A DNA stretch of 64,000 nucleotides from Thermodesulfobacteriota bacterium (GCA_965198945.1 CBDAQI010000012.1:42910-106909); one strand, 5' to 3'. Numbered from the stretch's first letter, positions 5,869-60,053 are shown. Numbers and translations are program-made. Notes: generated by a model from the sequence alone, not told the origin.

Positions 5869-6429
5869 TTAAATTTTTGAAATCTTCGGCGGCGTAATTC
5901 CCTTCTGTTTCTGATACTTTCCCTTCTTGTCGGCATAGGATTTTTCACAGGCTTCGTCGCCTTCAAAAAACAGAACCTGTGCTATGCCCTCTCCGGCATA
6001 TATTTTTGCGGGGAGCGGGGTTGTGTTTGAGATTTCAAGCGTTACGAATCCCTCCCATTCGGGCTCAAAAGGCGTTACATTCACTATTATTCCGCAACGC
6101 GCATATGTTGATTTGCCTACACACAGGGTCAGCACATTGCGCGGGATTCTGAAATATTCAACCGTTCTTGCAAGGGCAAAGGAATTCGGAGGAATTACGC
6201 AGTCTCCTTTAATTGACACAAACGATTTTTTATCAAAGTTTTTTGGGTCAACAAAAGTGCTGTGAATGTTTGTAAAGACCTGGAATTCACTGCTCACCCT
6301 TATGTCGTAACCATATGAGGAAAGCCCGTATGATATTTTGCCCTTGCTCACTTGTGATTTCACAAACGGCTCTATCATCCCGGACTCGCGAGCCATTTTT
6401 TTTATCCATCCGTCTGATTTTATTCCCAT
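5869..6429 (-). CDS. dcd: dCTP deaminase
   Basis: 186 aa. The N-terminus [15 protein letters not shown] and the overall pattern match Dcd. Confidence 0.85.
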
Positions 6430-8419: not shown

Positions 8420-10012
8420 CTAAACGCCTGCTTTTTTCTCCCGCCAAATGACGCTTGAGATTAGACGCGCGATGATAAGATTGCTGAACACCGTGCATAC
8501 TATTCCGGCACAGAGGGTTGCGGCAAAACCTTTTATCGGGCCGTTGCCGAACCAGAACAGGACGAGCCCGGCGAGCAGCGTGGTAACATTTGCGTCCAGA
8601 ATGGTTCTGACCGACCGCTTATATCCCATTTCAATGGCGTGGATGTGAGATTTCCCCGTTTTTATTTCTTCCCTGATTCTCTCAAATATGATTATGTTGC
8701 CGTCAACCGCGATGCCGAGAGTCAGAATCATTCCGGCTATTCCCGGAAGTGTGAGCGTTACGCCGAACGCGGCAAGAAGCCCCGTTATCAGAAGCATGTT
8801 CAGCCCCAGAGCCAGATCCGCTACAATACCGTGTGTGCCGTAGTAAAAGGCCATAAATATAATTACCAGAACTCCTCCCACGAGCATTGAGAGTTTTCCT
8901 TTTTGTATGGAATCTTTTCCTAGCGAGGGTCCTATAAGCCTTTCCTGTTCAACAAAAACCGGAACGGGCAGAGCCCCGGAACGCAGAATAAGAGCCAGGT
9001 CTTTTGCTTCTGATTGAGTGAAAGTTCCCGTTATCTGGCCCTCAAAAGTTATACGGCTCTGAACCACCGGAGCCGATTCAACAACTCCGTCAAGAACTAT
9101 CGCAAGACGGTTTCCTATGTTTTCTTCCGTAAGTTTGCCGAATTTTCCCGCTCCTTTGTTTGAGAAACTGAATGAGACCGAAGGGTTGCCGAAGCCGTCA
9201 AATGCGAGTCTCGCATCGGATATGTATTCCCCGGTGACTGAGCTTTTTGAGTCAGTCACGAAGAAGTTTTCATTTCCCCCTTCAAAAGAGGGGTGGATGG
9301 AGAGGTTTTTTTCTTCAAGCTCTTTGTCGGATTTGAGGCCAGCATCCGCGATCGCCTGCTCGCGGGAAAACCCCTGTCCGCGAACTATCTTGAATTCCAG
9401 AACGGCGGTCTTTTTGATTATGTCAACTATTCTGTCTCTGTCTTTTTCCGAGGCTCCGGGAACCTGTATGACAATCCTGTCATCTCCCAGCTTCGTTATT
9501 GACGGCTCTACGAGGCCGAAATCAAGAACGCGGTTTTCTATGACCCGCCTTACCTGTTCAATGGAGTCTTCCCTCATGAGTGATGTTTTATATTCACCCG
9601 GGAAAACCCTGACGGTCAGGTTTTTCTCATCGGCTTCAAGTGTCAATTCTTCAAACCTTTTCTCAAGAAACCTTCGGGCTTTAGCAAATGATTCAGGGTT
9701 TGAAAACTCCATTGTGAGCGTAAGGTCTTCCACTCCCGCAGAGGTGACCGCATCAGCGCCTTCCTCAAATTCTTCTTTGACGGAATCCATTATGTTTTCA
9801 AGCTGCCTGCTGACCCCCCGGTCAGTTTCAACTCCAAGCTGGATGAAAACCCCGCCTTTCAAATCAAGCCCCATGCGTATTCCCCGCGAGGGAAAAACCT
9901 TTGACCACCAACCCGGCAGGTCGCCCCCGGAAATGTTCGGAGCCAGAAAAATTAATGACAGAACAACGAAAAGAGCTACGGTGGCCAGTGAAAGTTTTGA
10001 AACCCGGCCCAA
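8420..10012 (-). CDS. secD: Protein translocase subunit SecD
   Basis: 530 aa with a signal-anchor and a large periplasmic domain followed by a 6-TM C-terminus. It lies directly downstream of yajC. Confidence 0.9.
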   Translation of the reverse strand: MGRVSKLSLATVALFVVLSLIFLAPNISGGDLPGWWSKVFPSRGIRMGLDLKGGVFIQLGVETDRGVSRQLENIMDSVKEEFEEGADAVTSAGVEDLTLTMEFSNPESFAKARRFLEKRFEELTLEADEKNLTVRVFPGEYKTSLMREDSIEQVRRVIENRVLDFGLVEPSITKLGDDRIVIQVPGASEKDRDRIVDIIKKTAVLEFKIVRGQGFSREQAIADAGLKSDKELEEKNLSIHPSFEGGNENFFVTDSKSSVTGEYISDARLAFDGFGNPSVSFSFSNKGAGKFGKLTEENIGNRLAIVLDGVVESAPVVQSRITFEGQITGTFTQSEAKDLALILRSGALPVPVFVEQERLIGPSLGKDSIQKGKLSMLVGGVLVIIFMAFYYGTHGIVADLALGLNMLLITGLLAAFGVTLTLPGIAGMILTLGIAVDGNIIIFERIREEIKTGKSHIHAIEMGYKRSVRTILDANVTTLLAGLVLFWFGNGPIKGFAATLCAGIVCTVFSNLIIARLISSVIWREKKAGV

Positions 10013-10014
10013 GC

Positions 10015-10386
10015 TCAGTTACCAGCCTTTTCTTCCACTTTTGAAGCGGCCGCGGACACCGATGCCTTCACCGTTACACCTTTTGCTATCTCAAGTCTGA
10101 GGGTGTCACCGTCTCTCTCGGTTATTGTGGCGTATATGCCGCCGCCTGTTATGATTTCATCTCCGCGTTTGAGATCTTTGAGCATGTTCTCACGGCTGCG
10201 CGAGCGTTTCTGCTGCGGGCGTATAATCAAAAAATAGAAAAGCGCAAAAAGAAGCACAAAGGGGAGGAGCCCGGTAAACAGAGACTGTCCTCCGCCTTCA
10301 CCGCTTTGGGCGGAAGCATCCGCCAGAGGTGTGAAAAGGGACAAAAAAGAGGCAAGTATAAAAATTCCGCCGTTAAAAATGTTCAA
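10015..10386 (-). CDS. yajC: Preprotein translocase subunit YajC
   Basis: 123 aa with a single TM, then GDEIITGGGIYATITE..., the YajC core. Confidence 0.85.
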   Translation of the reverse strand: MNIFNGGIFILASFLSLFTPLADASAQSGEGGGQSLFTGLLPFVLLFALFYFLIIRPQQKRSRSRENMLKDLKRGDEIITGGGIYATITERDGDTLRLEIAKGVTVKASVSAAASKVEEKAGN

Positions 10387-10503
10387 ATCAGAAAGCCCTC
10401 CGAAGTTTTTAAGAGTTGTTTTTAAGTAAAAAATACCAGTCAGAGCAACTTTATAACCATTCCGACTTTTATTTTCAACACCGCCCTTTTGAATAATGGA
10501 ATT

Positions 10504-11286
10504 TCACAGGCCGAGCACCTCCTTCATTCCGTATATCCCCGCGGGTTTTCCGTAAATCCATCTTGCGGCCCTGAGCGCCCCGGTGGCAAATATTTCTCTG
10601 TTGCGCGCCCTGTGTGAAAATTCAAGCCTTTCACCGTTGCCAAGGAAGAAAACCGTGTGGTCTCCGGGCATGTCACCCCCTCTGATGCTCTGTATGCCTA
10701 TCTCGCTTTTCTTCCGCGGCGCCGTGTTTTCCCTTCTTGAATAAATCGCTGAGTTTTCAAGGGTCAGGTTTCTTGCTTCAGCCGCCGTGCGCGCAAGGGC
10801 GAGGGCGGTTCCGCTGGGTGAGTCAATTTTCGCCGAGTGGTGCGCTTCAAGAACCTCTATGTCAAAATCATCTCCCAGTTTTTTTGAAGCGAGCGAAACA
10901 ATCCGTTCAAGCAGATTGACTCCGATGCTCATGTTCGGTGAGAGCACACAAGGGAAACTCTTCGCCGTTTCCGCAAGTTCGTTTTTTTCTTCCGTCGTAA
11001 ATCCGGTTGTTCCGACCACAAGGGCTTTGCCCGTCTCCGCGCAGTAGCGCGCATGGCTGAGGGTGGCTTGCGGAGAAGTGAAATCCACAATTACATCCGC
11101 CTTCTCTGATGCTTCTTCAATGCTGTCCGATATTTTTTTTCCACCGATCTTTCCGCCGATTCGGTCATGCCCTTTTCTTTCGTAAAGACCCGTGATTTCA
11201 ATGTCCGGCGCCTTTGCGGTTTCCGAAATCACGGCTCCGCCCATGCGCCCCGCCGCCCCCGCTACGGATATTTTAATAATTTCCAT
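10504..11286 (-). CDS. dapB: 4-hydroxy-tetrahydrodipicolinate reductase
   Basis: N-terminal Rossmann motif KISVAGAAGRMGGAV. The protein is 260 aa. Confidence 0.85.
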   Translation of the reverse strand: MEIIKISVAGAAGRMGGAVISETAKAPDIEITGLYERKGHDRIGGKIGGKKISDSIEEASEKADVIVDFTSPQATLSHARYCAETGKALVVGTTGFTTEEKNELAETAKSFPCVLSPNMSIGVNLLERIVSLASKKLGDDFDIEVLEAHHSAKIDSPSGTALALARTAAEARNLTLENSAIYSRRENTAPRKKSEIGIQSIRGGDMPGDHTVFFLGNGERLEFSHRARNREIFATGALRAARWIYGKPAGIYGMKEVLGL

Positions 11287-11385
11287 TTTTACACTGCGGA
11301 AAAATTGAAGTAGAGTGATTCATTATCGCGGATTAGGTTAAACTCCACACGCGGAATTTCAAGAAAGATTTCAAGACACCCGAAA

Positions 11386-12261
11386 ATGAAGAGCATGACA
11401 GGCTTCGGAAGAAGCGAAACAGAAGTTAAGGACGGCAGGCTTATTGTTGAAGCGCGGAGCGAAAACCACAGGTTTTTTGATGCGCGTGTTCAAGTTCCCG
11501 AAACGGTGGCTTTTCTTGAATCCGACATTCTCAAACAACTGAAAAAAGTGATTTTAAGAGGCAAGGTAAAGGTTGCCGTCACATATGAAACTGAACGGGA
11601 GCTGAGTCGGGCAATAGACCCGCGCGCCGCGCGCGCCGCGCTTTCAAGTCTGAAAAAACTTCAAAACAGCTTGAATCTCAAGGGTGAAATAACCTTGGAA
11701 CACATTTTATCCCTAGGGGATTTAATCAAAGCGCCGCCTGAACGGCACCGTCCCGGCGGCAGAGAGGCGGCGGTGATAAAGAAAGCGTTTGTGAGCGCGA
11801 TTGAAAAACTGGATGAGAGCAGAAGCCGTGAGGGAAAACGCCTAAAAAAAGATCTGCTTCTGCGCTCCGGCAAATGCAAACGGACTGTGAAAGAAATCAA
11901 AAATGAGCGCGGAAAGTATGAGAAAGAAATAAAGCGCAAAATCGCCGAGAAAACCAAATCTCTGCTCAAAGATAAAAATATGGACGAGACGGGAATTTAT
12001 CAGGAAATGGCCGCCGTCGCGGAGAAGAGCGACACAACTGAAGAGATAGTCAGAATGAATTCTCATCTTTCCCGGTTTTCCGAGTTCCTGTCCAAAACCG
12101 GCCTTTCGGTCGGCAGGGAGTTGGATTTTCTCACTCAGGAAATGAACCGGGAGTCCGGAACCATTTCCGCAAAATCAAAGTCTCCGGCCATATCACATCT
12201 GGCGATTGATTTGCGGTCTGAGATAGAGAAAATGCGTGAACAGATCCAAAACGTTGAGTAG
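11386..12261 (+). CDS. yicC: YicC family protein (UPF0701, stress-induced endoribonuclease-like)
   Basis: MKSMTGFGRSE... N-terminus is diagnostic of the YicC family. The protein is 291 aa. Confidence 0.85.
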   Translation: MKSMTGFGRSETEVKDGRLIVEARSENHRFFDARVQVPETVAFLESDILKQLKKVILRGKVKVAVTYETERELSRAIDPRAARAALSSLKKLQNSLNLKGEITLEHILSLGDLIKAPPERHRPGGREAAVIKKAFVSAIEKLDESRSREGKRLKKDLLLRSGKCKRTVKEIKNERGKYEKEIKRKIAEKTKSLLKDKNMDETGIYQEMAAVAEKSDTTEEIVRMNSHLSRFSEFLSKTGLSVGRELDFLTQEMNRESGTISAKSKSPAISHLAIDLRSEIEKMREQIQNVE

Positions 12262-13258: not shown

Positions 13259-14983
13259 TTGAAAAGAACAACAAGCATACCCTCTCTTCTCAAGAGGCAT
13301 AAACCGCAGCTTATTGCCGGGTTTCTCACTCTTTCAGCGGTTGATTTGATTCAGATGGCTATTCCGCTTGTTATCAGGCGGGCGACTGATGCGTTTACCT
13401 CAGGGGCGCCTGATGCGGCGGACATTGTAAGGGTTTGTGCTTTTTATATTTTTGGCATGGGGCTTGTAATGGCGGTTTTCCGTCTGGGATGGCGCTATTT
13501 CATAATGGGGTCGGCGCGCAAAATAGAACAAAGCCTCAGAAACGAATTTTTCTCACACATCCAGAGACTTGACATGACACATTTGTCTTCGCGAAAAGTG
13601 GGGGATTTGATGGCTCACACCGTTAATGACATAGAAACCCTCAAATTTGCCTGCGGTCTCGGTGTGCTTGTCGCATATGACGGTCTGTTTCTGCTGGTCT
13701 TCATAATGGCGGCGATGTTTCTCATATCTCCTCCGGTTGCGGCGGTGCTGTGCGTGCCGTTTTTTCTCATGATGGTTTTTGTTATAAAAGGCGGCAGGGA
13801 GATAGAGAAACGTTTCAGAAAAACCCAGGAGTCTTTTTCATCTCTCACCGAGAGCGCAAGGAGGCCCGTTCACGGCATCAAGGCCGTAAAGTCTCTGTGT
13901 GCGGAGGATTCGGAGACCGGAAATTTCCTCCGGTCAAGTATGCACTATGCTCAAAGCAACATAAACTTTGCCAGACTGTGGGCCGTGTATCAGCCCGCAA
14001 TATCGCTGTGCGTCGGAATTGCCGGAGTGTCGTTTCTTTTTCTGGGCGGCGAGCGCACTATGACCGGCTCAATGACGCTTGGGGATTTTACCGCGCTGCT
14101 TGTTTATCTGTCAATGCTGACATGGCCGATGATGGCAATGGGATGGGCTCAGGACATTCTGCGGAGAGGAAACTCTTCAATCGGCAGGCTCAACTCCATA
14201 TTCAAACTTGAGCCGGAGGCGGAAGTGACCGGGGAAGAGAATTTTCCGCGAATGAGAGGAGAAAACCTTGAGGTTTGTGGAATTGTCCATTCTCTCGGCG
14301 GCGCGAAAATTCTAAACGGCTGTTCTTTGAAAGCCGCGGCGGGCGAAACCGTCTGCATAGTCGGAAGAATGGGCTCCGGCAAATCCACGCTTGCGGCAAT
14401 AATCGGCGGAGACATTGAGCCCGATGCCGGAGATGTGCTGATTGGCGGCGGAGACACGAGGCAAATGAGCCGTAAGCAGTTGAAAAAACAGGTTGTCTGC
14501 GTTGACCGCAAAGCTTTTATCTTCAGCGGAACGGTTCGTGAAAACATAAACTTTATGAGCACCCGCCGAGAACCGCAAACCCTGAAAGCGGCGGAAATAT
14601 GCGGAATAAAAGAAGAAATTGAAAGTTTTGAGATGGGGATGGATTCAGTTCTCGGAGAGAGAGGAATCAATCTTTCCGAAGGTCAGAAACAGAGAATATC
14701 AATCTCCCGTTCAATCGTATTTGAACCGGCGGTTTTAATCCTTGATGACTCGCTTTCGTCGGTTGATCTTTCCACCGAGGCAAAAGTTATGAAAAATCTG
14801 CGGCTCTGGGCGAAAGAAACGCAAACCGTCCTGATAATTATTTCCAGCCGCACAAACTCCTCCCGCCTTGCCGACCGCATTATGGTTCTGGAAGGCGGAA
14901 GAGTGCTTGAACGGGGAACACACGAAGAACTTATTTTGAAAAACGGCATATACGCCGCCATGTACAGGATACAGGCCGGATGA
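13259..14983 (+). CDS. ABC exporter permease/ATPase fusion, subunit 1 of a heterodimeric pair
   Basis: Six-TM N-terminus plus an NBD with Walker A GRMGSGKST and a canonical signature LSEGQKQR. Walker B ILDDS has D in place of the catalytic E. Confidence 0.85.
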   Translation: MKRTTSIPSLLKRHKPQLIAGFLTLSAVDLIQMAIPLVIRRATDAFTSGAPDAADIVRVCAFYIFGMGLVMAVFRLGWRYFIMGSARKIEQSLRNEFFSHIQRLDMTHLSSRKVGDLMAHTVNDIETLKFACGLGVLVAYDGLFLLVFIMAAMFLISPPVAAVLCVPFFLMMVFVIKGGREIEKRFRKTQESFSSLTESARRPVHGIKAVKSLCAEDSETGNFLRSSMHYAQSNINFARLWAVYQPAISLCVGIAGVSFLFLGGERTMTGSMTLGDFTALLVYLSMLTWPMMAMGWAQDILRRGNSSIGRLNSIFKLEPEAEVTGEENFPRMRGENLEVCGIVHSLGGAKILNGCSLKAAAGETVCIVGRMGSGKSTLAAIIGGDIEPDAGDVLIGGGDTRQMSRKQLKKQVVCVDRKAFIFSGTVRENINFMSTRREPQTLKAAEICGIKEEIESFEMGMDSVLGERGINLSEGQKQRISISRSIVFEPAVLILDDSLSSVDLSTEAKVMKNLRLWAKETQTVLIIISSRTNSSRLADRIMVLEGGRVLERGTHEELILKNGIYAAMYRIQAG

Positions 14984-16848
14984 GCGGGGAAAAGAGCGAA
15001 AAAACAATCTTCGGCGCCATGTATGACAGAAGGATGCTGTCATGGCTGTTCGGTTTTATCAAACGGTGGAAATGGTTTCTGGCTGCTTCTTTTTTTCTTA
15101 TGACATTCGCGGCGGCTCTGGAAGTTGCGGTGCCCTACATAACCAGACAGGCCGTTGACAATTACATATCCCTGCCTCGGGTTAAAAATCCGGACGGTGA
15201 AATTGTTGATGCGTCATCACGCGGAAAAAACGGCGTTTCGTCCGAAAAATACCTTGTGGTTGACATAACTGACCCGCTTTCCGAGTCTTCAAAAATTGCG
15301 GCGCGCCATCCCGAACTTTTTGTCCGGAAGGACGGGGCGGCGCACATAAGTGGAGAAGATTTGCGCTCTTTGCCAAAACGGGAGATCAAAACGCTCAGGG
15401 CCCGTGATTCCGACGGCATATTGCGTCTGACGGCTTTGATGGCACTTTGCGTTCTGGGAATTTTTGCCTCTTCCTCACTCTCAAACTACCTGCTCAAGGT
15501 TTCCGGAGAGAGAATTATTCACGACATCAGGGACGGAACTTTCAGGCATATCATGTCTCTGCCGCAGAAATTTTTTGACGAAAATCCAACCGGCAGAATC
15601 ACAACAAGGGTTACAAACGATTTGAACTCCGTAAGCGAGATGTATTCGTCTGTGATTGTTCAAACCATTAAAGATCTGCTGGTGTTTGCGGGCGTTACGG
15701 TTGTGATGTTCCGGCTCAACTCCGAACTCGCTCTCATAATGCTCTGCATAGTGGGAGCCGCCGGTTTTGCCGCACATCTTTTCCGCAAAAAACTCAGATT
15801 TTCTCACCGCAGAATAAGACGCTCAATAGCGAGGCTTAATTCATTTGTGCAGGAAAGTGTCAGAGGAATGCGAATTATAAAAGACTACGGAAGAGAGCAG
15901 TCCAATCTGCGCAGATTTAAGAAACCGAACAGTGAAAATTTTCTCGCCAATATGGAGCAGCTATGGGTTTATGTGATTTTCCGTCCCTTTATTGAGTATG
16001 CCGCAATTGCGGCCATAGGAATTATCATCTGGTATGGAGGCGTGGGAGTTATAGAAGGCGATTTCACCGCCGGAACACTGATTGCCTTTCTCTATTACAC
16101 GAGGATGATGTTCAGACCCGTGCTTGAGATTTCGGAGAAATACAACGTTCTTCAGTCTGCCATGGCGGCGACCGAAAATATTTATGACATAAACAGGATT
16201 GACCCCGAAAGATTAGGCGGCGCCGGGTTTTCCGAAGAAGAAGGAGACCTTGAGTTTCAAAATGTCTGGTTTTCCTACGGGGATGACAAATGGGCGCTCA
16301 GGGATGTTTCTTTCAAAGTGCCTCCCGGTCAGTGGGTGGCGATAGTCGGCCTCACGGGTTCGGGCAAATCCACCATATTCAACCTGATGTTCCGTCTTTA
16401 TGAGCCGCAGAGGGGAAAGATAATTTTTAACGGCTCCGACATAGCGGAAACGGAACTGAAGCGGCTCAGAAAATGCATTGTCCCGGTTTTTCAGGAAAGA
16501 AAAGATTATGAAAAAAAAGACGATTGCGCGGTTAGTTTGTCTTCGGGTGAGGAACAGGTCAGAAACATTGAAGAGGTTTTGTCGGGCAGTCCCTCGGTGG
16601 TTATCATGGATGAGGCGACTTCCAACATGGACGCGGAAACGGAAGTGGAAACCATCAAAAAAGTCAGAGAATTGTCGCGCCGCAAAGGCTTCAGTCTCGT
16701 AACCATAGCCCACCGGCTCTCAAGCATCAGGGAAGCGGACAAAATCATGGTTGTTCACGAGGGCGGAATAGTTGAGTCCGGCACTCATGCGGAACTCATG
16801 GCGCTCGGAGGCATTTATCACTCACTGGATAAATTTGCGGGCGGCTGA
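14980..16848 (+). CDS. ABC exporter permease/ATPase fusion, subunit 2 of a heterodimeric pair
   Basis: TMD plus an NBD with Walker A GLTGSGKST and Walker B VIMDEATS. The signature is degenerate (LSSGEEQ) with an insert. The start overlaps the previous stop. Confidence 0.85.
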   Translation: MSGEKSEKTIFGAMYDRRMLSWLFGFIKRWKWFLAASFFLMTFAAALEVAVPYITRQAVDNYISLPRVKNPDGEIVDASSRGKNGVSSEKYLVVDITDPLSESSKIAARHPELFVRKDGAAHISGEDLRSLPKREIKTLRARDSDGILRLTALMALCVLGIFASSSLSNYLLKVSGERIIHDIRDGTFRHIMSLPQKFFDENPTGRITTRVTNDLNSVSEMYSSVIVQTIKDLLVFAGVTVVMFRLNSELALIMLCIVGAAGFAAHLFRKKLRFSHRRIRRSIARLNSFVQESVRGMRIIKDYGREQSNLRRFKKPNSENFLANMEQLWVYVIFRPFIEYAAIAAIGIIIWYGGVGVIEGDFTAGTLIAFLYYTRMMFRPVLEISEKYNVLQSAMAATENIYDINRIDPERLGGAGFSEEEGDLEFQNVWFSYGDDKWALRDVSFKVPPGQWVAIVGLTGSGKSTIFNLMFRLYEPQRGKIIFNGSDIAETELKRLRKCIVPVFQERKDYEKKDDCAVSLSSGEEQVRNIEEVLSGSPSVVIMDEATSNMDAETEVETIKKVRELSRRKGFSLVTIAHRLSSIREADKIMVVHEGGIVESGTHAELMALGGIYHSLDKFAGG

Positions 16849-17636: not shown

Positions 17637-18364
17637 TATTCAGCCTTGAGATGCTCCACTCCCTGAGCTCCTGAAACCAGGATGTCGGTCGTGGTTGTGA
17701 GAAAAAGACCGTGCTCAACAATTCCCGACCTCCACACCAGAGATTCGGCGATGATTTTCAAGTCGTAGATGGGCCCGAAATCACAGTCCAGTATGTAGTT
17801 TTTCTCATCCGTTTTGAAGATTCCGCCGTTTTCATCTTTTCTGAGTTCCATTGAGGCGGCGCCCAGAGAGGAGATAAACCTCCGCGCCGGTTTTACCGCA
17901 AAAGGTATTACTTCAACTGGAAGACGGCAGCGTGTTCCCAGTTTTTCCGACAATTTGCTTTGGTCAACAACTATTATGTTTCTTGAACTTTCCTGCGCCA
18001 CAACTTTTTCGCGCAGCATCGCCCCCCCCCCCCCTTTTATGACATTGAGTTTGCGGTCAACCTCGTCCGCCCCGTCTATTGTTATGTCTATGGCCTTGTC
18101 CCGGGTGAACTCGCTGTCTATTTTAAGGCCGAGAGATTTTGCGTATTTTTCAGTCTTAATTGAGCTCGGCACACAGGCTATGTTTTCAATCAGCTCCGCG
18201 CGGAACTTTTCGGCAAGATATTCAATCGCAAAGGTGGCGGCTTTGCCCGTGCCCAAACCCACCACCATGTCCGAGCAGACAAAATCAACGGCCATTGAAG
18301 CCGATCTTTTTATTGCCTCGTCCGGAACCTCCCGCCTCGGAGGTTTGCCTTTGTAAATACCCAT
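17636..18364 (-). CDS. rpiA: Ribose-5-phosphate isomerase A
   Basis: MVVGLGTGKAATFAIEYL and the conserved KGGGGAMLREK motif. The ORF extends to 18412, but the likely start is the Met at 18364. Confidence 0.88.
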   Translation of the reverse strand: MGIYKGKPPRREVPDEAIKRSASMAVDFVCSDMVVGLGTGKAATFAIEYLAEKFRAELIENIACVPSSIKTEKYAKSLGLKIDSEFTRDKAIDITIDGADEVDRKLNVIKGGGGAMLREKVVAQESSRNIIVVDQSKLSEKLGTRCRLPVEVIPFAVKPARRFISSLGAASMELRKDENGGIFKTDEKNYILDCDFGPIYDLKIIAESLVWRSGIVEHGLFLTTTTDILVSGAQGVEHLKAE

Positions 18365-33216: not shown

Positions 33217-33831
33217 ATGATATCCGGACGGTCCTTTCTTTATTGTTTGGCGGCGGCTTTTTTCGTCGTTTTGCTTAATCCTTCCGTTTCACGGGCGGAC
33301 AGCGATTGCCCTTCTTCAGACCACGAGGAAGATAAAGAATTTTCGGAAAGATGGTTTTCACACAGCAAAAGTCATCATGATCATGACGACCATCATGAAT
33401 ACCCCAAAAACTACAAAAGCAAAAGTCATGATGATGACCGTCATGGATACCGCAAAGATTACAAGTACAAGAAAAGTTCCCGGCACAAGTGGAAGCGGCG
33501 GGCCGGGCCTTTCTGGTGGAGAACCTCTTTCATGGCGGAGCGTTTGAGTCTAAGTGAACAGCAGATTTCAAAACTGGATGGAATCGCCGTTTCGTATACG
33601 CCGCGTATTTCAGAGGCTTATCATGAAATGTATGAAGCGAAGCTGGAGTTTAACAGAGCGGTTGCAGACCCGGAATCTTCGTCCAAAAAAATCAAGGCGG
33701 CGGCTGATAAAAAATACAAGGCATGGGTGGATAAAAAAATGATTAAGCTGGACATGCTTCTTGAAATGCGAAAAGTCCTGACGCCTGAACAGATTAGAGA
33801 TTTGACGCTTTTGAAAATGAAAAACAAGTGA
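33217..33831 (+). CDS. Periplasmic CpxP/Spy/ZraP-family protein with a His-rich N-terminal region
   Basis: Signal peptide, a His/Asp-rich tract ([14 protein letters not shown]...HDDDRHGY) and two LTxxQ-type motifs ([16 protein letters not shown]). Confidence 0.7.
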
Positions 33832-35706
33832 AAATTCATGCGGATTCGGGGACGGGCGAGCGGAGTTTTAATCTCCACAGTGAATTTGAACCGGCGGGAG
33901 GGCAGCCCGGAGCCATAGAACAGATTATATCGCGGCTTCGTGACGGCATTCCCGACCAGGTTCTTCTCGGTGTGACCGGCAGCGGAAAGACCTTTACCGT
34001 TGCTCACGCGATTGCACGCACGGGGCGGCCGGCGCTTGTTCTTGCGCACAACAAAATCCTCGCCGCACAGCTCTACGGAGAGTTCAAAAACCTGTTTCCG
34101 GACAACGCCGTTCACTATTTCATAAGTTACTACGATTACTATCAGCCTGAAGCGTATATACCTCAGAGCAACACTTACATAGAGAAAGATGTTGCAATCA
34201 ACGACCATATAGACAAGATGCGCCATGCGGCCACCACGGCGCTTTTTGAACGCCGCGACATAATAGTTGTGGCCAGTGTGTCAGCCATATACGGCATCGG
34301 AGCCCCGCAGGACTATTACGGAATGATGAACTTCATTCAACCGGGCGCAAAAACGGACAGAGATGTTTTTCTGTCAAGACTTGCGGGTATTCAATATGAA
34401 AGGAGCGGTGAAGTTCTGCAAAGGGGAACCTTCAGGGTTCGCGGCGATGTTGTTGATGTTATGCACTCCCACGGCGAAAATGAGGCTGTGAGAATTGAGT
34501 TTTTCGGTGAAACGGTTGAGAGCGTGAGTGCGATTGACGGCAATACCGGAGCTTTTCTACGCCATATGGAAAAGGCCTCTTTTTATCCCGCCTCCCACTA
34601 TGTTGCTCCGAGAGAAAAGCTGCTCGCCGCCATAGATTCAATCAAGAAAGAGCTTGAGGAGAGAATCGCGTATTTTTCCTCCCGTGCAATGGAGGAGGAA
34701 AAAAACAGAATACGGGAACGAACCCGGAGAGATATTGAGTTTCTTGAAACCATGGGATTTTGTCCCGGAATAGAAAACTATTCCCGGCACCTTTCCGGGA
34801 GAGCCGAGGAGGAGCCTCCGTTCACTCTTCTTGACTATTTTCCCGATGATTTTATTTGTGTGATAGATGAGAGCCACCAGACCGTTCCGCAGATTCGCGG
34901 CATGCACGCCGGAGACAGGAGCCGCAAACAGACACTTGTTGAACACGGTTTCAGGCTTCCGTCCGCAATAGACAACAGGCCTCTCAACTTTGATGAGTTT
35001 GCCGAAAGGGTCGGCCAGGTTATTTACGTTTCCGCCACTCCGGCGCAGTATGAAATCAGAAAATCCGCCGGTTCGGTTGCCGAACAGATAATCCGTCCGA
35101 CCGGTCTTGCCGACCCGGAGGTTGAAGTTCGTCCCGCCCGCGGCCAGGTTGAAGACCTTCTCGGAGAGGTCCGCACTGCGGCCCGTGCGGGCGAGCGGGT
35201 TCTTGTTTCCACACTCACGAAAAAAATGGCGGAGGATCTGACAGATTATTACAGGGAGGCGGGCGTGAGGGTGCGTTATATGCATTCTGAAATAGAGACT
35301 CTTGAGAGGGTTCGCATAATACGGGATTTGAGAAGCGGTGAATTTGATGTTCTTGTCGGCATTAACCTTCTGCGCGAGGGGCTTGATATCCCGGAAGTGG
35401 CTTTGTTTGCGGTGCTTGACGCGGACAGGGAAGGTTATTTGCGCAGTGAGACTTCTTTGATTCAGATGTTCGGCAGAGCGGCCAGAAAACAGCGCGGGCA
35501 GAGTAATAATGTATGGCGATGAAACAACCGGCTCAATGAGAGCCGCCATGCGCGAGACTGCGCGGCGAAGACAAATGCAGCTTGAATATAATGAGAAAAA
35601 CGGCATAGTTCCCTCCGATATCAGAAAAAATATCAACGGGGCCATGGGGCTTGTTTGCGATGCAGACTATGTTGATTTTTCCGAAGATGAGGCAGTCCCC
35701 GTCTGA
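33828..35706 (+). CDS. uvrB: Excinuclease ABC subunit B. It is interrupted by a 1-nt frameshift near 35500-35510.
   Basis: Aligns along its length with E. coli UvrB ([33 protein letters not shown]). ORF 33828..35522 and ORF 35509..35706 (...[32 protein letters not shown]) are consecutive UvrB segments in different frames. Confidence 0.9.
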
Positions 35707-36008
35707 CATTGCCCCGGAAAAGATACCGGGGGGTCATAAAGTCTCTCACGGCTGAGATGAAAAAAAAGCGCGGATGGTCTGGAATTTGAGAAGGCGGCCG
35801 GGTTTGAAAAAAAGAATAAGAAAACTTAAAGAAATGGAAGCGGAGTATATTGCGGGAATGAACGGCCGCGGAGCCTGATTTTTCTTTTTTTACAATCAGG
35901 GTTTTAATTCTTTTCCGGTTTGACGGATGACTTGCAGGTGGTTTCCGTCAACTTGCTTAAAAACTGCGGTTTGATTAAAATAACCGGCGGACAGCCACTG
36001 GTTTTGCA

Positions 36009-54761: not shown

Positions 54762-55147
54762 TTTTTAGGAAGGCGGGTTTTGAAGCCAAGAGGGTAATTT
54801 ATTGGATGTTTTTTGCAAATTGGCTTGGTAGGAGGGAGTGAAAATTTTCCGTAGTTAAGTTTTTCTTCCTGAAAAGATTTCAGGTTGTGATTTTTTGCCG
54901 ACAATTACATTATGAATACTGGATTCCCGTTTGCAAGGGAATGACGATGGGGAGTTTTTCCCGCAATTCCCATTTTCCCGTCATTTCCGCAAAAGCATGT
55001 CCCCGTGAAAGCTTGTCCTCATGAAAATGGGGACGGCAATTCAGAAGGCATGGGGAGCAAAACATAGCAAGCGGGACACCAAGTCATATTTCACTCAGTT
55101 CAAACAGAAGTATGAACAGGGGGGTGAGCGGAGCCGAACCCCGAAAC

Positions 55148-55447
55148 GTTGTGAATTGAGGGCAGGTTTCAGTCAGTTACAATTCCTTGAGTTGTCCACA
55201 ATTTTCAACACTAGTTGTGAATTGAGGGCAGGTTTCAGTCAGTTACAATCTGGGAGCAAAGCGAATGGGGGGCGAAACAGTTGTGAATTGAGGGCAGGTT
55301 TCAGTCAGTTACAATTCCTTGAGTTGTCCACAATTTTCAACACTAGTTGTGAATTGAGGGCAGGTTTCAGTCAGTTACAATCTGGGAGCAAAGCGAATGG
55401 GGGGCGAAACAGTTGTGAATTGAGGGCAGGTTTCAGTCAGTTACAAT
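55148..55447 (+). CRISPR. CRISPR array with five 36-bp direct repeats (GTTGTGAATTGAGGGCAGGTTTCAGTCAGTTACAAT) and four 30-bp spacers. Spacer 1 equals spacer 3 and spacer 2 equals spacer 4.
   Basis: Repeats lie at 55148-55183, 55214-55249, 55280-55315, 55346-55381 and 55412-55447 and are identical. The spacers are tccttgagttgtccacaattttcaacacta and ctgggagcaaagcgaatggggggcgaaaca, each present twice. The array is adjacent to cas2. Confidence 0.95.
55157..55183 (+). promoter_or_regulatory. Putative repeat-embedded sigma70-like promoter (TTGAGG, 16 nt, TACAAT). It recurs in every CRISPR repeat.
   Basis: Within the repeat, TTGAGG sits at repeat positions 9-14 and TACAAT at 31-36, 16 nt apart. The arrangement resembles the repeat-internal promoters described for Neisseria type II-C arrays. 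Confidence 0.45.
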
Positions 55448-55497
55448 AGCTATCCCTCAAATGCAATGGTGGCAAGGGGTTATGGCTCTCCGGCAAA

Positions 55498-55827
55498 TCA
55501 AAAAAGAGTGATTTGCTGGGGAGTTGTCTCCGCCTTCTTCCGTTTCTTCCCATAAAACACCTGCATTCGTCCGAACTGTTTGTCCGTAATAATAATCACC
55601 CGCACTTCTCCTTGCGGAGGCAGCCACTCTCTCACTCTTCCCGAATGAACAAATGCATTTTCTTCACTTGCGCAATGTCTGGCATATACGGAGAACTGCA
55701 TCATTATAAATCCGTCCCGCATAATATGCTTTCTAAATCTTGCGTAGTCTTTCCGTGCCTTCTTCGTGTCTGTTGGAAGGTCAAACATCACTATTACCCA
55801 CATAGTTCTGTATCCTCCGAAAGCCAT
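55498..55827 (-). CDS. cas2: CRISPR-associated endoribonuclease Cas2 (type II)
   Basis: VIVMFDLPTDTKKARKDYARFRKHIMRDGFIMMQFSVYARH parallels S. pyogenes Cas2 ([39 protein letters not shown]). Confidence 0.92.
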   Translation of the reverse strand: MAFGGYRTMWVIVMFDLPTDTKKARKDYARFRKHIMRDGFIMMQFSVYARHCASEENAFVHSGRVREWLPPQGEVRVIIITDKQFGRMQVFYGKKRKKAETTPQQITLF

Positions 55828-55829
55828 TT

Positions 55830-56738
55830 CTAAACCTCAATTCTCATTTGTCTGTTTTCAATCAGTTCCGGTATTTTCAAACACTCAACCCCTTCTGAAA
55901 AAGCTTTCTTAAGGCTCGCCGCCATATGCTGGTTTGCCACCATCATCGGCAGTTTCTTTCCTTCAAACAGAACATCTTCTGAAAGAAGAGACAGCAATGA
56001 CATTTTTGTTGTAGTATCAATCTCATTTCTCCCATGCTCGTTCAGTTCATAAACACGTCTGTCAACAAGAGGACGCAACGGTTCAATAAGGTCGTCCGCA
56101 AGGCACATCGGGTTATATTGGTTGTGGTGATGAATCCCGAGCGCCGGATGAAGCCCCGTTCCGCACAAAGCACGGGCGACGGATGCTCTGACGATGCTGT
56201 ATCCGTAGTTGAGTAGAGAGTTGATTCCTTCTTCTTTGTAATTTCTGGAAAACTGTTTTCCAAACAGTTTTGACCAGTATACCCTCGCCGCCTGCGCCTC
56301 AATATTTCTCGTGTCACCGCTTAAGACTCTTTTTTTGAATCCGGGAAGAGGGGAGGGGTCTTTTTTGAAAAAAAGCAGTGTCCGAATCTGTGCTTCTGTT
56401 TTGGCAATTATGACTTTCTGCCAGAGTCGTTTTTTTAGAGGTTTTTTGACGCCCGTCTGTAAATTGAGGACTTTGCTGTGGGTTGAATTGCCGGAAAGGG
56501 GTAGCAAAACGGAAACCGGAAGATGGCTCCGGTCACAAAAAACTATTATGCAGTTGTTTTTCTGACATTCGGCTATGAGGCTCTGAGAGATTGAAATTGC
56601 GGGATTGGCAAGTATGAGAATTCCCATGTCTTCTACGGGAATACTGCTTTCTTTTTCACCGTCTTTTTTGATAATCATCTGATAATCTTTCAGATGAAGA
56701 TATGCAGGGTTGCTGACTTCAGTGATTCGCTTGATCAT
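55830..56738 (-). CDS. cas1: CRISPR-associated endonuclease Cas1 (type II)
   Basis: 302 aa. ...VYWSKLFGKQFSRNYKE...NYGYSIVRASVARAL...HHHNQYNPMCLADDLIEPLRPLVD matches the type II Cas1 catalytic core. Confidence 0.92.
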   Translation of the reverse strand: MIKRITEVSNPAYLHLKDYQMIIKKDGEKESSIPVEDMGILILANPAISISQSLIAECQKNNCIIVFCDRSHLPVSVLLPLSGNSTHSKVLNLQTGVKKPLKKRLWQKVIIAKTEAQIRTLLFFKKDPSPLPGFKKRVLSGDTRNIEAQAARVYWSKLFGKQFSRNYKEEGINSLLNYGYSIVRASVARALCGTGLHPALGIHHHNQYNPMCLADDLIEPLRPLVDRRVYELNEHGRNEIDTTTKMSLLSLLSEDVLFEGKKLPMMVANQHMAASLKKAFSEGVECLKIPELIENRQMRIEV

Positions 56739-56744
56739 TATGGA

Positions 56745-59700
56745 CTAAATTGTGTTTGTAAGGCTAAAACCTAAAGAGTTAATGGACTCTTTTTGCAATT
56801 TGTATTTAGTCATTAGGATGGAAATTGTCCTGCTTAGTTTTTCTTCATTATTATCGAGCGTGGCGGCGGAGTGAAGTCTTAGCCATAGTATTTCTCCTTC
56901 TCTTTGGAATTTTTGCACTCTGTAAAATCTTCTTTCTCCTTTTTCTTCTACACTTACCGTATCATTTATGCACAAGCTCATAATAAATTTCCAGTCTTCT
57001 CCATGGTCAGTTTTAACAATCGGTTCTCTTGTAATTCTTACTTTTTTTTGCGGCTTCCATTGTGGTTACAAAAACACCTTTGGATCTGTTTGTTTTTTTA
57101 TTCTTGATTATTTCTACATGGTGGCTGTTTCCATAAATCATTACACTTAATATTTTGTTACTGTTTTTCTTGGGTTTAAGCCAGTAATTTTTTTCACTAA
57201 ACTCATTAGTTACCCAAACTTTTGCCCGTCTGACAATATCTCCGGTTTTTGGATGCTTAAAAGCTTCTTCTTGCAGTTTTTTTTGAGCGCTTTTTAAGCC
57301 TCCTCTCATATTTACATATTGTTCAAATCCTTCTCTGATTGCCGGACATACTATATTTCTCAAATTTTTGTCCGTCATACCAGTCAGATTTTTGCTAACG
57401 ACGATTCTCTTTTTACCATTGTCTTCTTTTATTCCATATGCGGTATCTTCATGGAATGCTCCCGTCAGTTTTCTATTTGTCGCGTGAGAGACAATCATTT
57501 TATTTGTCGCGCTTTCCAACTCATTCCTAAGGTTTTCAAGCACCTGCGGTATTTCCAATCCCGATTCTGGAGATATGGAATCATCATCCGCTTTTGAAGC
57601 GAGATGTACCACCTTTTGATATAGGCTTCTGTTTGTAAGGGCAATGACCGTTGCGTCAATCGCGTGATGCCTATGGTCGTTACGGTTTTTCTCTCCCGTA
57701 TCTCCAAGGATGTTGTTCAGTCCCCATTGTCTTCGGAGCCAGCTTGTTATTCCGCCTTTGGTGAAAGTTACATCACAGCCGAGTGTTCTAATGTAATTTC
57801 CCGTTTCTTTTGCGATATAGCGGGCGTCTGATAACTGGCTGTTGATGAAATCTTCAATTCCATCCAACTTTTTTGTCAGAATTTTTCTGCGTTTTGCTTC
57901 GGGATAATTCTTGAGTTTTGCTATGGCTTCAATATTTTCCCATTGCTCTGTATTACCAAATGCTTCCCATGGTGTTCTGTTGCCTTTCTTCCTATTTTCC
58001 TCCGCAAGACAGACCGTCTTGTTCATATAGTAATTATCAAGACTCCTGCTGTATGGGAGTATGTGGTCTATTTCAACATCAGCAGACCAGAGTTGTGTCA
58101 GTCCTATAGGTTTCCCACTGTATAAACATTTACCTTCATTTTCTTTCCAGAGTCTGTATTTCTGTTTGTCCTGATGGCTTATGTATGTTTTCAACTGCAG
58201 GCCGGGTTCCTGCTCTTTTATGCTGTTGTATTTTTCTTCCGCTTCTTCATTTTCTTCTGTGTTTTTCTTTTGTCTTTCCAGTGCTTTTCTGTATTTCTCC
58301 GTATTCATTTCCAAATCACGAGACATTTCTATTCGTATCGCGGTTGGTTTTCCATATTCTTTGATAATTGCATTTACGACACGGCGAACTTCATATAACG
58401 CCTTTGTAACAATGGGGTTTGGTATAAAGGGAATTTCTCCAAGAGTTTCTTTGTTTCCGGTTTCCGGCGTTGTAATATCTTCGTAACCGGCAATTTGAAC
58501 CGCTCCTTTTTCTTCTTCTATGTCACTTTCTCGGCTGTAAACCCTGCCTTGCTTAAGGTGAGGCAGAATTTTGTTTATTGCTTTCAGGGACAGATTTCCG
58601 TGTCCCTTTTCCAATTCAAGAACCGCAAGTTTTGTTGCTTTTTCCGAGTCAATATCCGGGTAGTTTTGAAGACGTTTTTTCAGTCCCTTTTTGGATTCGT
58701 ATGAAATCAGATCTTCCACAAGCTGTTTTTGTTTTTTCTCATCAAAGGAGTCCCACAAGTCTCCAATTATTTCTCTGATTCCACAGGCGGTTTTGTTTCC
58801 CTGAATGCCTTTTCTGCTTTTTCCTTCAACTTTGTACAAATTGAACTTTGTTTTCTTATTCAGGTTGAGGATTTCTTTTCCTCTGATCTTTGCCCATGTC
58901 AGATTTCTGTTTTTTTTCAAGTGCTTCGGCAATCAGTTTTTTCTGATCTGGCGAGGGTTTTGCATCTTTTTCTCCCGTTTCAGTGTCATCCCAACTTAAA
59001 TTGTTTATGTCCTGCCAGTAACGGAATTGCTGAAACTCAAGTCGTCCCATATCTACTCTTCTCTTTTTTGGTTCAAGAGAGCAGTTTCCTATGGTTTTCT
59101 TGTCCCAGGTTACGGGACGTTGGTGAAAGATAATTTTCTCAATTGCGCTTCTTACATCTTCAGTGTAAATCTTCGGGTTTAGTTCGGACTGTTTACGGAA
59201 GATTTTTTCAAACTCTTCCTGATACATTCTGCGGTCTGTTCTGAGGTCATGAAGTTCTCCTCTGTTGCGTTTTCGGGGCAGGGTTGCAAGATACTCACCG
59301 AGAGTCCTTTTCCCATTTTCGCTTATCTTCTCTCGGAGCTTTTTAATATCTTCTTTGAATTTGCCTTCATCTTTGTCGGTTTCCGCGGCTTCGTCTTCAA
59401 TTTCAAGGATTTCCCGCGCTTCCAAATCTTCACGCAAGTTTCCAAATCCCGTTTTGCGGTTGCTTAAAAATCCCCGTCGTGTTCCCAGATGCATTATTGC
59501 GCGTCCAAACTCATGTGGGGTCAAAATATCATCTAATCCTTTCGCTCTTATCTGATATGGATCTCCAAGCTTATTAAATTCCGATTCCAGGTTTGGCTCG
59601 TCTTTGAGCGTCTCCGGCAGAAATCCCCTGCTTATAAGGTAGTTGCGAAGACGCAATTTACGTCTGTGCCGCCGTTCAATGACACGCCTTAAAAGACGTT

Positions 59701-59884
59701 TTGCTCTGCGGTGTTGGTTTTTCGGAGTGGGTGTTTTGTCTTCAACGGAGCGTATGAATATACGGCTTCCACAATCAATAAAATTTTTCGGTTTGCCTTG
59801 TTCTTCCTCAATGACGCTCCAGCCGATTGAGTTTGTGCCCATATCAAGACCAATTGCATATTCAGATAGTTTTGTCTTTTTCAT
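56745..59884 (-). CDS. cas9: Cas9 (compact, type II-C-like, about 1046 aa). Its reading frame is split into three ORFs by two single-base frameshifts in A8/T8 homopolymers, at about 58910-58917 and 57042-57049.
   Basis: N-terminal RuvC-I motif YAIGLDMGTNSIGWSVIEE in ORF 58856..59884. HNH motif (DHILPYSRSLDNYYMNKTVCLAEENRKKGNRTPWEAF) and RuvC-III in ORF 57013..58932. The C-terminal PI-like tail is ORF 56745..56981 (...LWLRLHSAATLDNNEEKL...). Removing one A from each A8 run joins the three frames seamlessly. Confidence 0.9.
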
Positions 59885-59934
59885 TTTCTCATCCCTTGAC
59901 AGAATTTTTTCTGTAGTATAGTAATATTAGTATA

Positions 59935-60053
59935 TTATAATTGACTGAAACCTGTCCAAGCATTTTTTCTATTCATAACAAGAAACTAATGTTTCGCAGG
60001 ATAACCAGGGTAAACCTAATCGCCTCTCGCCTTAGGGCAGGGGCGATTTTTTT
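59935..60053 (+). ncRNA. Putative tracrRNA, encoded divergently from cas9
   Basis: An anti-repeat at 59943-59985 (TGACTGAAACCTGTCC...ATTCATAACAAG) is complementary to the 5' half of the CRISPR repeat, with a central bulge. A TATAAT at 59936-59941 overlaps its start. A downstream hairpin TCGCC-N10-GGCGA plus a T7 run (60047-60053) looks like an intrinsic terminator. Confidence 0.7.
60021..60053 (+). terminator. Rho-independent terminator of the putative tracrRNA
   Basis: GC-rich hairpin (ctcgcc ttagggcagg ggcga) followed by ttttttt. Confidence 0.6.

Follow-up and report, generated by a model that had tools for sequence, protein, structure and literature searches.

We analysed a 64 kb stretch of DNA from a Thermodesulfobacteriota bacterium assembly (the window, to which all coordinates refer unless stated otherwise), in which positions 55148–60053 carry a CRISPR-Cas (clustered regularly interspaced short palindromic repeats and CRISPR-associated genes) locus. 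Judged from its sequence, the locus is an ordinary type II-C CRISPR-Cas9 system of an uncultured Dadabacteria-like bacterium. A CRISPR array is followed by cas2, cas1 and cas9, all on the opposite strand, and by a divergent gene for trans-activating CRISPR RNA (tracrRNA) upstream of cas9:

55148–55447, + strand: CRISPR array, five identical 36-nt repeats GTTGTGAATTGAGGGCAGGTTTCAGTCAGTTACAAT and four 30-nt spacers
55498–55827, − strand: cas2, intact, 109 aa
55830–56738, − strand: cas1, intact, 302 aa
56745–59884, − strand: cas9, in three open reading frames (ORFs): 58856–59884 (342 aa), 57013–58932 (639 aa) and 56745–56981 (78 aa)
about 59934–60053, + strand: tracrRNA gene, divergent from cas9, about 120 nt, with a predicted 5′ end

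A preliminary description of this DNA had reported a complete, minimal type II-C-like locus in which cas9-cas1-cas2 are accompanied by a divergent tracrRNA and an array. All five parts were found where it had placed them, but to call the locus complete is an overstatement, since cas9 is frameshifted twice in the sequence as given. The product of cas1 matched TIGR03639 (type II Cas1) at 286 bits and the PADLOC family Cas1_II at 3e-103, and the product of cas2 matched TIGR01573 at 73 bits and Cas2_II at 1.5e-46. The operon is tightly packed, with 6 nt between cas9 and cas1, 2 nt between cas1 and cas2, 50 nt between cas2 and the array, and nothing else in between. As the preliminary description had noted, neither csn2 nor cas4 was present, either in the operon or among the defence-family matches listed (25 of 51 PADLOC families, 115 ORFs). 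These matches were to Cas9, Cas1 and Cas2, together with the unrelated mad3 (2 ORFs). Under the Makarova classification, type II-C is usually defined by the presence of cas9, cas1 and cas2 only, and the gene set therefore places the locus in type II-C.

For comparison we fetched ten related loci (L001, L003, L019, L082–L084 and L086–L089). Among named organisms, Ca. Mycalebacterium zealandia (GCA_011087705.1), whose Cas9 is designated P0001, is the nearest; a literature search for Mycalebacterium gave no papers. Cas1 and Cas2 of the window are 84% and 86% identical, respectively, to those of L001 over their full lengths, and Cas9 identity across the relatives is 57–72%.

The two large cas9 pieces matched the Cas9 model TIGR01865 at 226 and 402 bits. 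The gene is not contained in a single uninterrupted ORF, as it is broken by two +1 shifts, each due to a single surplus A in an A8 run:

58910–58917, − strand: first frameshift site, coding-strand A8 (T8 on the + strand); removal of one A restores ...LEKNRNLTWAK...
57042–57049, − strand: second frameshift site, coding-strand A8 (T8 on the + strand); removal of one A restores ...MEAAKKVRITREPIVKT...

A third A8 run in cas9, at 57277–57284, stays in frame. Deleting one A from each of the two affected runs yields a Cas9 of 1045 aa plus stop, with no internal stop over 3.1 kb. The earlier estimate of approximately 1046 aa is thus right for the corrected gene, but is reached only once these two bases are deleted. 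When aligned with P0001 (1062 aa), the corrected protein showed 72% identity and was colinear over 1062 columns, unbroken at both junctions. The relatives carry A5–A7 and an open frame at both sites. For the frame-corrected product only, the domains expected of a Cas9 effector were identified (Cas9_a at residues 262–439, HNH_4 at 586–639 and RuvC_III at 677–806). It retains the RuvC and HNH motif residues D14, E519, D606/H607, N630 and H740/D743, which are invariant or nearly so in an alignment of 21 family sequences. Nine positions that are otherwise invariant carry a change unique to the corrected protein; the intact relatives mostly have 0–10 such changes, with 17 in P0036 and 11 in P0037. 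A public protein collection contains a 608-aa fragment, P0026, identical to the middle cas9 ORF. As this is the source's own gene call, the frame breaks are present in the deposited assembly.

The corrected Cas9 was compared with solved structures using phmmer. The best PDB chains gave E-values of 1e-81 to 1e-71 and are 1053–1095 aa long; we take these to be GeoCas9 and Nme1Cas9, both of type II-C. The chains that reach 1e-41 to 1e-35 are presumably SaCas9 and St1Cas9 (type II-A), and from chain length we assume that none of the 47 PDB matches is an SpCas9 or FnCas9 chain. On this identification the best matches agree with the II-C assignment made earlier from the gene set. The description of the protein as compact is overstated, since 1045 aa is close to the size of the best-matching solved chains and thus unremarkable.

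Only two distinct spacer sequences occur in the array, twice each. Spacer S1 (55184–55213) is identical to S3 (55316–55345) and S2 (55250–55279) to S4 (55382–55411), because a 132-bp unit consisting of repeat-S1-repeat-S2 has been duplicated exactly, with zero differences. Every repeat carries the promoter-like element TTGAGG-16 nt-TACAAT, which ends at the final base of the repeat. Transcription of the CRISPR RNAs (crRNAs) probably runs along the + strand, towards cas2 and antisense to the cas genes, a direction set by the orientation of the anti-repeat and by the tracrRNA terminator. Array size varies widely among the relatives. L003, L019, L082 and L089 have 20–43 repeats (43 in L089, at 9395–12164 of its own sequence), while L001 has four (10478–10714) and L084 a single one (10415). 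With 1, 4 and 43 repeats among syntenic relatives, small arrays evidently occur beside intact cas9 genes too.

We searched for protospacers in the window, in IMG/VR using both halves of each spacer, and in GenBank phages using whole spacers, and found none for either spacer. The check proposed earlier, inference of a protospacer-adjacent motif (PAM) from spacer matches, accordingly gave no PAM. Comparison of 132 spacers (130 of them from the relatives) with all fetched loci likewise gave no informative match. A 142-aa ORF (55021–55449, + strand) spans the whole array. Its translation, CELRAGFSQLQ..., is repetitive; the ORF is an artefact to which the repeats give rise, and gene-calling software could list it as a protein.

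The core of the repeat has a single additional copy in the 64 kb, at 59934–59957, antisense to the repeat and upstream of cas9, where zero copies would be expected by chance. This anti-repeat, complementary to the repeat, identifies the predicted tracrRNA, whose gene and upstream region contain the following elements:

59896–59901, + strand: −35 box TTGACA, with TTGAC invariant in the window and six relatives
59919–59924, + strand: weak −10 box TAGTAA
59934–59957 and 59971–59979, + strand: anti-repeat, in two stretches split by a U-rich bulge
59982–59995, + strand: small hairpin
59998–60017, + strand: middle region
60005–60008, + strand: 4-nt deletion (TTTC in comparison with L084), which removes one arm and the loop of a nested hairpin
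60019–60053, + strand: terminator hairpin and T-run, of which a G+C-rich hairpin and T-run were detected at 60027–60053

The last base of the T-run, 60053, is the end point that the preliminary description had given for the locus. In an alignment of seven loci, TTGAC is placed 16–18 nt upstream of a TA-rich hexamer, and the anti-repeat begins about 8–10 nt beyond. A scan for consensus promoters did not call this promoter, because the −10 box of the window is without the final T. Nor did Rfam give any match to a tracrRNA or CRISPR-repeat family, for the locus at E-values up to 1 or for the whole window at the gathering score.

Cofolding of repeat and tracrRNA gave approximately −70 kcal/mol for the window, and about −70 to −77 kcal/mol across four loci, which have a common architecture: a long helix and, beside the spacer, a short one, separated by a U-rich bulge in the tracrRNA. 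The anti-repeat co-varies with the repeat in L083, L087, L088 and L089. Upstream of cas9, on the opposite strand, all ten related loci have an anti-repeat together with the conserved core TTCATAACAAGA..CAAATGTTTCGCAGG; the terminator is present in the ten loci aligned. The tail folds into the small hairpin, a nested hairpin and the terminator, with compensatory pairs in the nested hairpin (CCUU/AAGG, CCCC/GGGG and CUC/GAG). The nested hairpin is absent from the fold of the window tracrRNA.

The best promoter-like match of the locus, TGGACA-18 nt-TATACT (10/12 positions), lies at 59929–59958 on the − strand, which is the cas9 strand, inside the anti-repeat. Two anti-repeat bases that differ from the repeat also generate a perfect TATAAT on the same strand. 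The anti-repeat may thus double as the cas9 promoter.

The locus is flanked by a BT1-family transporter gene beyond the array and by an aldehyde dehydrogenase (ALDH) gene on the side of the tracrRNA and the cas9 5′ end, as reported earlier. No mobile-element gene adjoins it, again in agreement with that report, and Pfam scans of the remaining large genes of the window gave housekeeping families only. Related loci were sought in several ways. A contig search with a single Cas9 sequence retrieved no relatives; when it was repeated with an alignment it returned 79 loci, L003 and L019 being the only close ones. A metagenome search with the conserved tracrRNA core gave one match; its three spacers are identical to those of L001, which suggests that both come from one organism.

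L001 is colinear with the window in the order glycosyltransferase, MacB, BT1, array, cas2, cas1, cas9, ALDH, TPR, PfkB and PNP. The BT1 gene, the ALDH gene or both also adjoin the locus in L019, L082, L084 and L087, so that the comparison with relatives, which had been suggested as a check, found it at the same site in five of them. The Cas proteins of the window are 72–86% identical to those of L001, and the flanking proteins 62–81%. The conserved site and the equal divergence of cas and flanking genes indicate that the locus is old and inherited. It is thus, on this comparative sequence evidence, vertically inherited and not recently acquired.

The preliminary description had instead regarded the locus as probably acquired, on account of the low G+C content of cas9. 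The observation behind this view is correct: cas9 is AT-rich, with a G+C content of 0.40 compared with 0.482 ± 0.034 for 44 other window genes, or 2.4 standard deviations below their mean. However, cas9 G+C content is 0.39–0.43 in all eight relatives measured, whatever that of their flanks (0.38–0.59), and AT-richness is therefore a trait of this cas9 family and not a sign of recent transfer. The window contains no tRNA gene, and no integrase or transposase gene lies within 54 kb of the locus; the only recombinase of the window is a XerC-like gene beside hslVU at the far end, 54 kb away. Together with the shared chromosomal site and the like divergence of the flanks, these findings make recent acquisition, as a defence island, hardly credible.

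Whether the two breaks in cas9 belong to the organism or to the assembly bears on how the locus is read. Lesions of the same kind were found in two housekeeping genes of the window:

33828–35870, + strand: uvrB, whose ORF stops at 564 aa
near 35487, 35696, 35728–35733, 35760–35767 and 35807–35813, + strand: five uvrB shift sites, in runs A4, C4, G6, A8 and A7, respectively
1–868, + strand: xerC-like (XerC/XerD) gene beside hslV-hslU, cut by the window start, with its N-terminal domain in another frame
90–97, + strand: A8 run at which the xerC frames join, by a −1 shift

The last 115 or so codons of uvrB pass through five successive +1 shifts within about 330 nt. Removal of one base per run gives a protein of 681 aa that aligns end-to-end with the solved UvrB 2fdc_A (E-value 8e-243), and the shifted part is well conserved. 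Five indels without substitutions do not form a pattern of neutral decay; they look like a patch of poor consensus, and the uvrB lesions accordingly look artefactual on sequence grounds. An earlier argument of ours, that the cas9 frameshifts were real since all other large ORFs looked intact, was withdrawn once the truncated uvrB and the shifted xerC had been found. In total the window contains eight frameshifts, all but one of them +1, and 4 of its 26 A/T runs of at least 8 are hit; about 93% of the window lies under long ORFs.

We consider it about 50% probable that the locus is an inherited II-C system in which the cas9 A insertions are errors of the assembly consensus, the gene being intact in the organism. 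The like lesions in uvrB and xerC make the cas9 breaks look like assembly error, and the corrected cas9 is free of stops and of large deletions and is not unusually rich in changes at conserved positions, beside intact cas1 and cas2. Several observations weigh against this reading. Of the three A8 runs in cas9, two are hit, compared with 2 of 23 such runs elsewhere (p approximately 0.03–0.05, by our own count). The frame is kept through a G13 run in rpiA, through two A9 runs and through about 20 A/T8 runs, so the assembly is not generally poor at homopolymers, and none of the many A4–A7 runs of cas9 is hit, unlike in the uvrB patch. One lesion of the locus is not an error of the homopolymer type: in the nested hairpin of the tracrRNA the window has AACC----AGGGT where the relatives have CCUU-UCA-AGG, CCCC-UUCG-GGGG or CUC-UACG-GAG (9/9 aligned). 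The −10 box of the tracrRNA lacks a final T that most relatives have, both spacers of the window are duplicated whereas only 1 of 130 spacers in the relatives is a duplicate, and the cas9 of L019 is independently frameshifted. Relaxed selection is hinted at, independently, by the tracrRNA deletion and by the relic-like two-spacer array. No second assembly of the source species was found in the collections, and a literature search on cas9 homopolymer pseudogenes gave nothing relevant.

Many of the same observations would be explained if the inherited locus had truly been inactivated and were beginning to decay, with A7 having slipped to A8 twice, the hairpin lost, the array shrunk to a duplicated two-spacer relic, and cas1 and cas2 not yet hit. 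We regard this as a real possibility, though a tentative one. The breaks do stand in the deposited contig, as the 608-aa gene call attests, and the hits are enriched in the A8 runs of cas9 while longer or equal runs elsewhere remain in frame. The hairpin that has been lost is kept, with compensatory changes, in nine of nine relatives, the −10 box is weakened, two duplicated spacers contrast with the 20–43 repeats of L003, L019, L082 and L089, and L019 has a break of its own. Set against this are the lesions in housekeeping genes, above all the cluster of five in uvrB, which is not natural decay as the protein is otherwise preserved; the absence from corrected cas9 of any further damage; and L001, which has an intact cas9 and likewise a small array, of three spacers. 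It is very unlikely that the frameshifts are real but bypassed, by RNA polymerase slippage on A8 or by phase variation of the DNA, giving low or switchable Cas9. Both breaks do fall exactly in A8 runs and need the identical −1 correction, cas9 is otherwise undamaged, and transcriptional slippage has been documented to rescue poly(A) frameshifts in insect endosymbionts (PMC3017870) and in Citrobacter tssM (PMC4256274), a subject that has been reviewed (PMC5009743). However, two independent corrections per transcript would give a very low yield, and the Blochmannia paper calls runs of at least 9 long, one frameshifted run there having 11 A's (PMC3017870). The relatives have A5–A7 with an open frame, so the A8 state is not conserved, and plain error fits the shared pattern in uvrB and xerC better. 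The more specific proposal, that Cas9 is made only when transcriptional or DNA slippage restores both A8 frames, as a low-dose or switchable effector in a host-associated bacterium, has a slimmer chance still. If slippage were the explanation, the frameshift in L019 would hint at a recurrent turning-down of CRISPR immunity in the lineage.

In L019 (OZ242184.1) cas9 is split into pieces of 468 and 555 aa by a one-base shift at 6373–6386 of that sequence, in AAAAAGGG; this locus has a 25-repeat array and the same ALDH and BT1 neighbours. The gene is open in L001, L003, L082–L084 and L086–L089, all of which, except L003, were fetched via an intact gene product. The long run in rpiA is a C13 on the + strand (G13 in the coding direction) at 18022–18034. 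It is in frame and encodes a conserved KGGGGA motif, is unusually long for a coding homopolymer in a genome of 48% G+C, and, as a control, shows that miscalling does not affect every long run. An ABC exporter gene (14980–16848, + strand) was considered as a further case of a frameshift at an A8 run and rejected, as it is in frame. This gene, the second of two adjacent ones, has a shortened nucleotide-binding domain, which lacks about 40 residues between the Q-loop and a degenerate signature motif, LSSGEEQ; its product may be the degenerate half of a heterodimer.

If the two single-A insertions are consensus errors, the organism would have an intact cas9, a two-spacer array and a tracrRNA that lacks one hairpin. 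In the pathway that we infer, by analogy with the type II-C systems of Neisseria and Campylobacter, the promoter-like element in each repeat would start a + strand crRNA a few bases into the next spacer. The tracrRNA of about 120 nt would pair with the repeat through stretches of 24 bp and 9 bp around the U-rich bulge. Once the RNAs had been processed, Cas9 (1045 aa, with all catalytic motifs present in its sequence) would cut matching DNA beside a PAM, and Cas1 and Cas2 would insert spacers at the cas2-proximal end of the array.

With this locus, a clade of Dadabacteria metagenome-assembled genomes (MAGs) yields one more uncharacterised II-C Cas9, ordinary in size (1045 aa), which means little beyond cataloguing. 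The tracrRNA and repeat of the clade can now be written down, and could be used by anyone testing this Cas9 family. For such work the cas9 gene is unusable as assembled, with two bases to be removed, and an intact relative such as P0001 or P0002, with its hairpin-bearing tracrRNA, would be a safer start. The low G+C content of cas9 should not be taken here as evidence of recent transfer. Were the frameshifts real, the locus would offer a modest illustration of how a reduced genome loses CRISPR.

The system resembles the II-C systems of Neisseria meningitidis (Nme1Cas9) and Campylobacter jejuni, in which each repeat carries its own promoter. Those systems share with the window a cas9-cas1-cas2 operon without a fourth gene, 36-nt repeats of the form GTTGT...ACAAT with 30-nt spacers, a −10-like TACAAT ending every repeat, a tracrRNA upstream of cas9, and an array that is read towards the cas genes. 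The Cas9 protein itself is distant, with a phmmer E-value of about 1e-71 to the chains that we take to be Nme1Cas9. The window also differs in the U-rich bulge of about 10 nt in its anti-repeat, in a repeat −10 box without a TG extension, and in the frameshifts that cas9 carries in the assembly.

Among solved structures the closest match is a chain that we take to be the II-C GeoCas9 of Geobacillus stearothermophilus (E-value 8.8e-81 over residues 8–836), and the two proteins are of similar length (1082–1087 aa compared with 1045 aa). Beyond the RuvC and HNH cores the two share little identity, and the match does not extend to the C-terminal, PAM-interacting part. The nearest counterparts are the loci of Ca. 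Mycalebacterium zealandia and other Dadabacteria MAGs, which have the same repeat family, tracrRNA and chromosomal neighbours, and a Cas9 that is 57–72% identical. These loci differ from the window in that they keep the nested tracrRNA hairpin, and several have 20–43 repeats, with spacers that are distinct apart from one duplicate.

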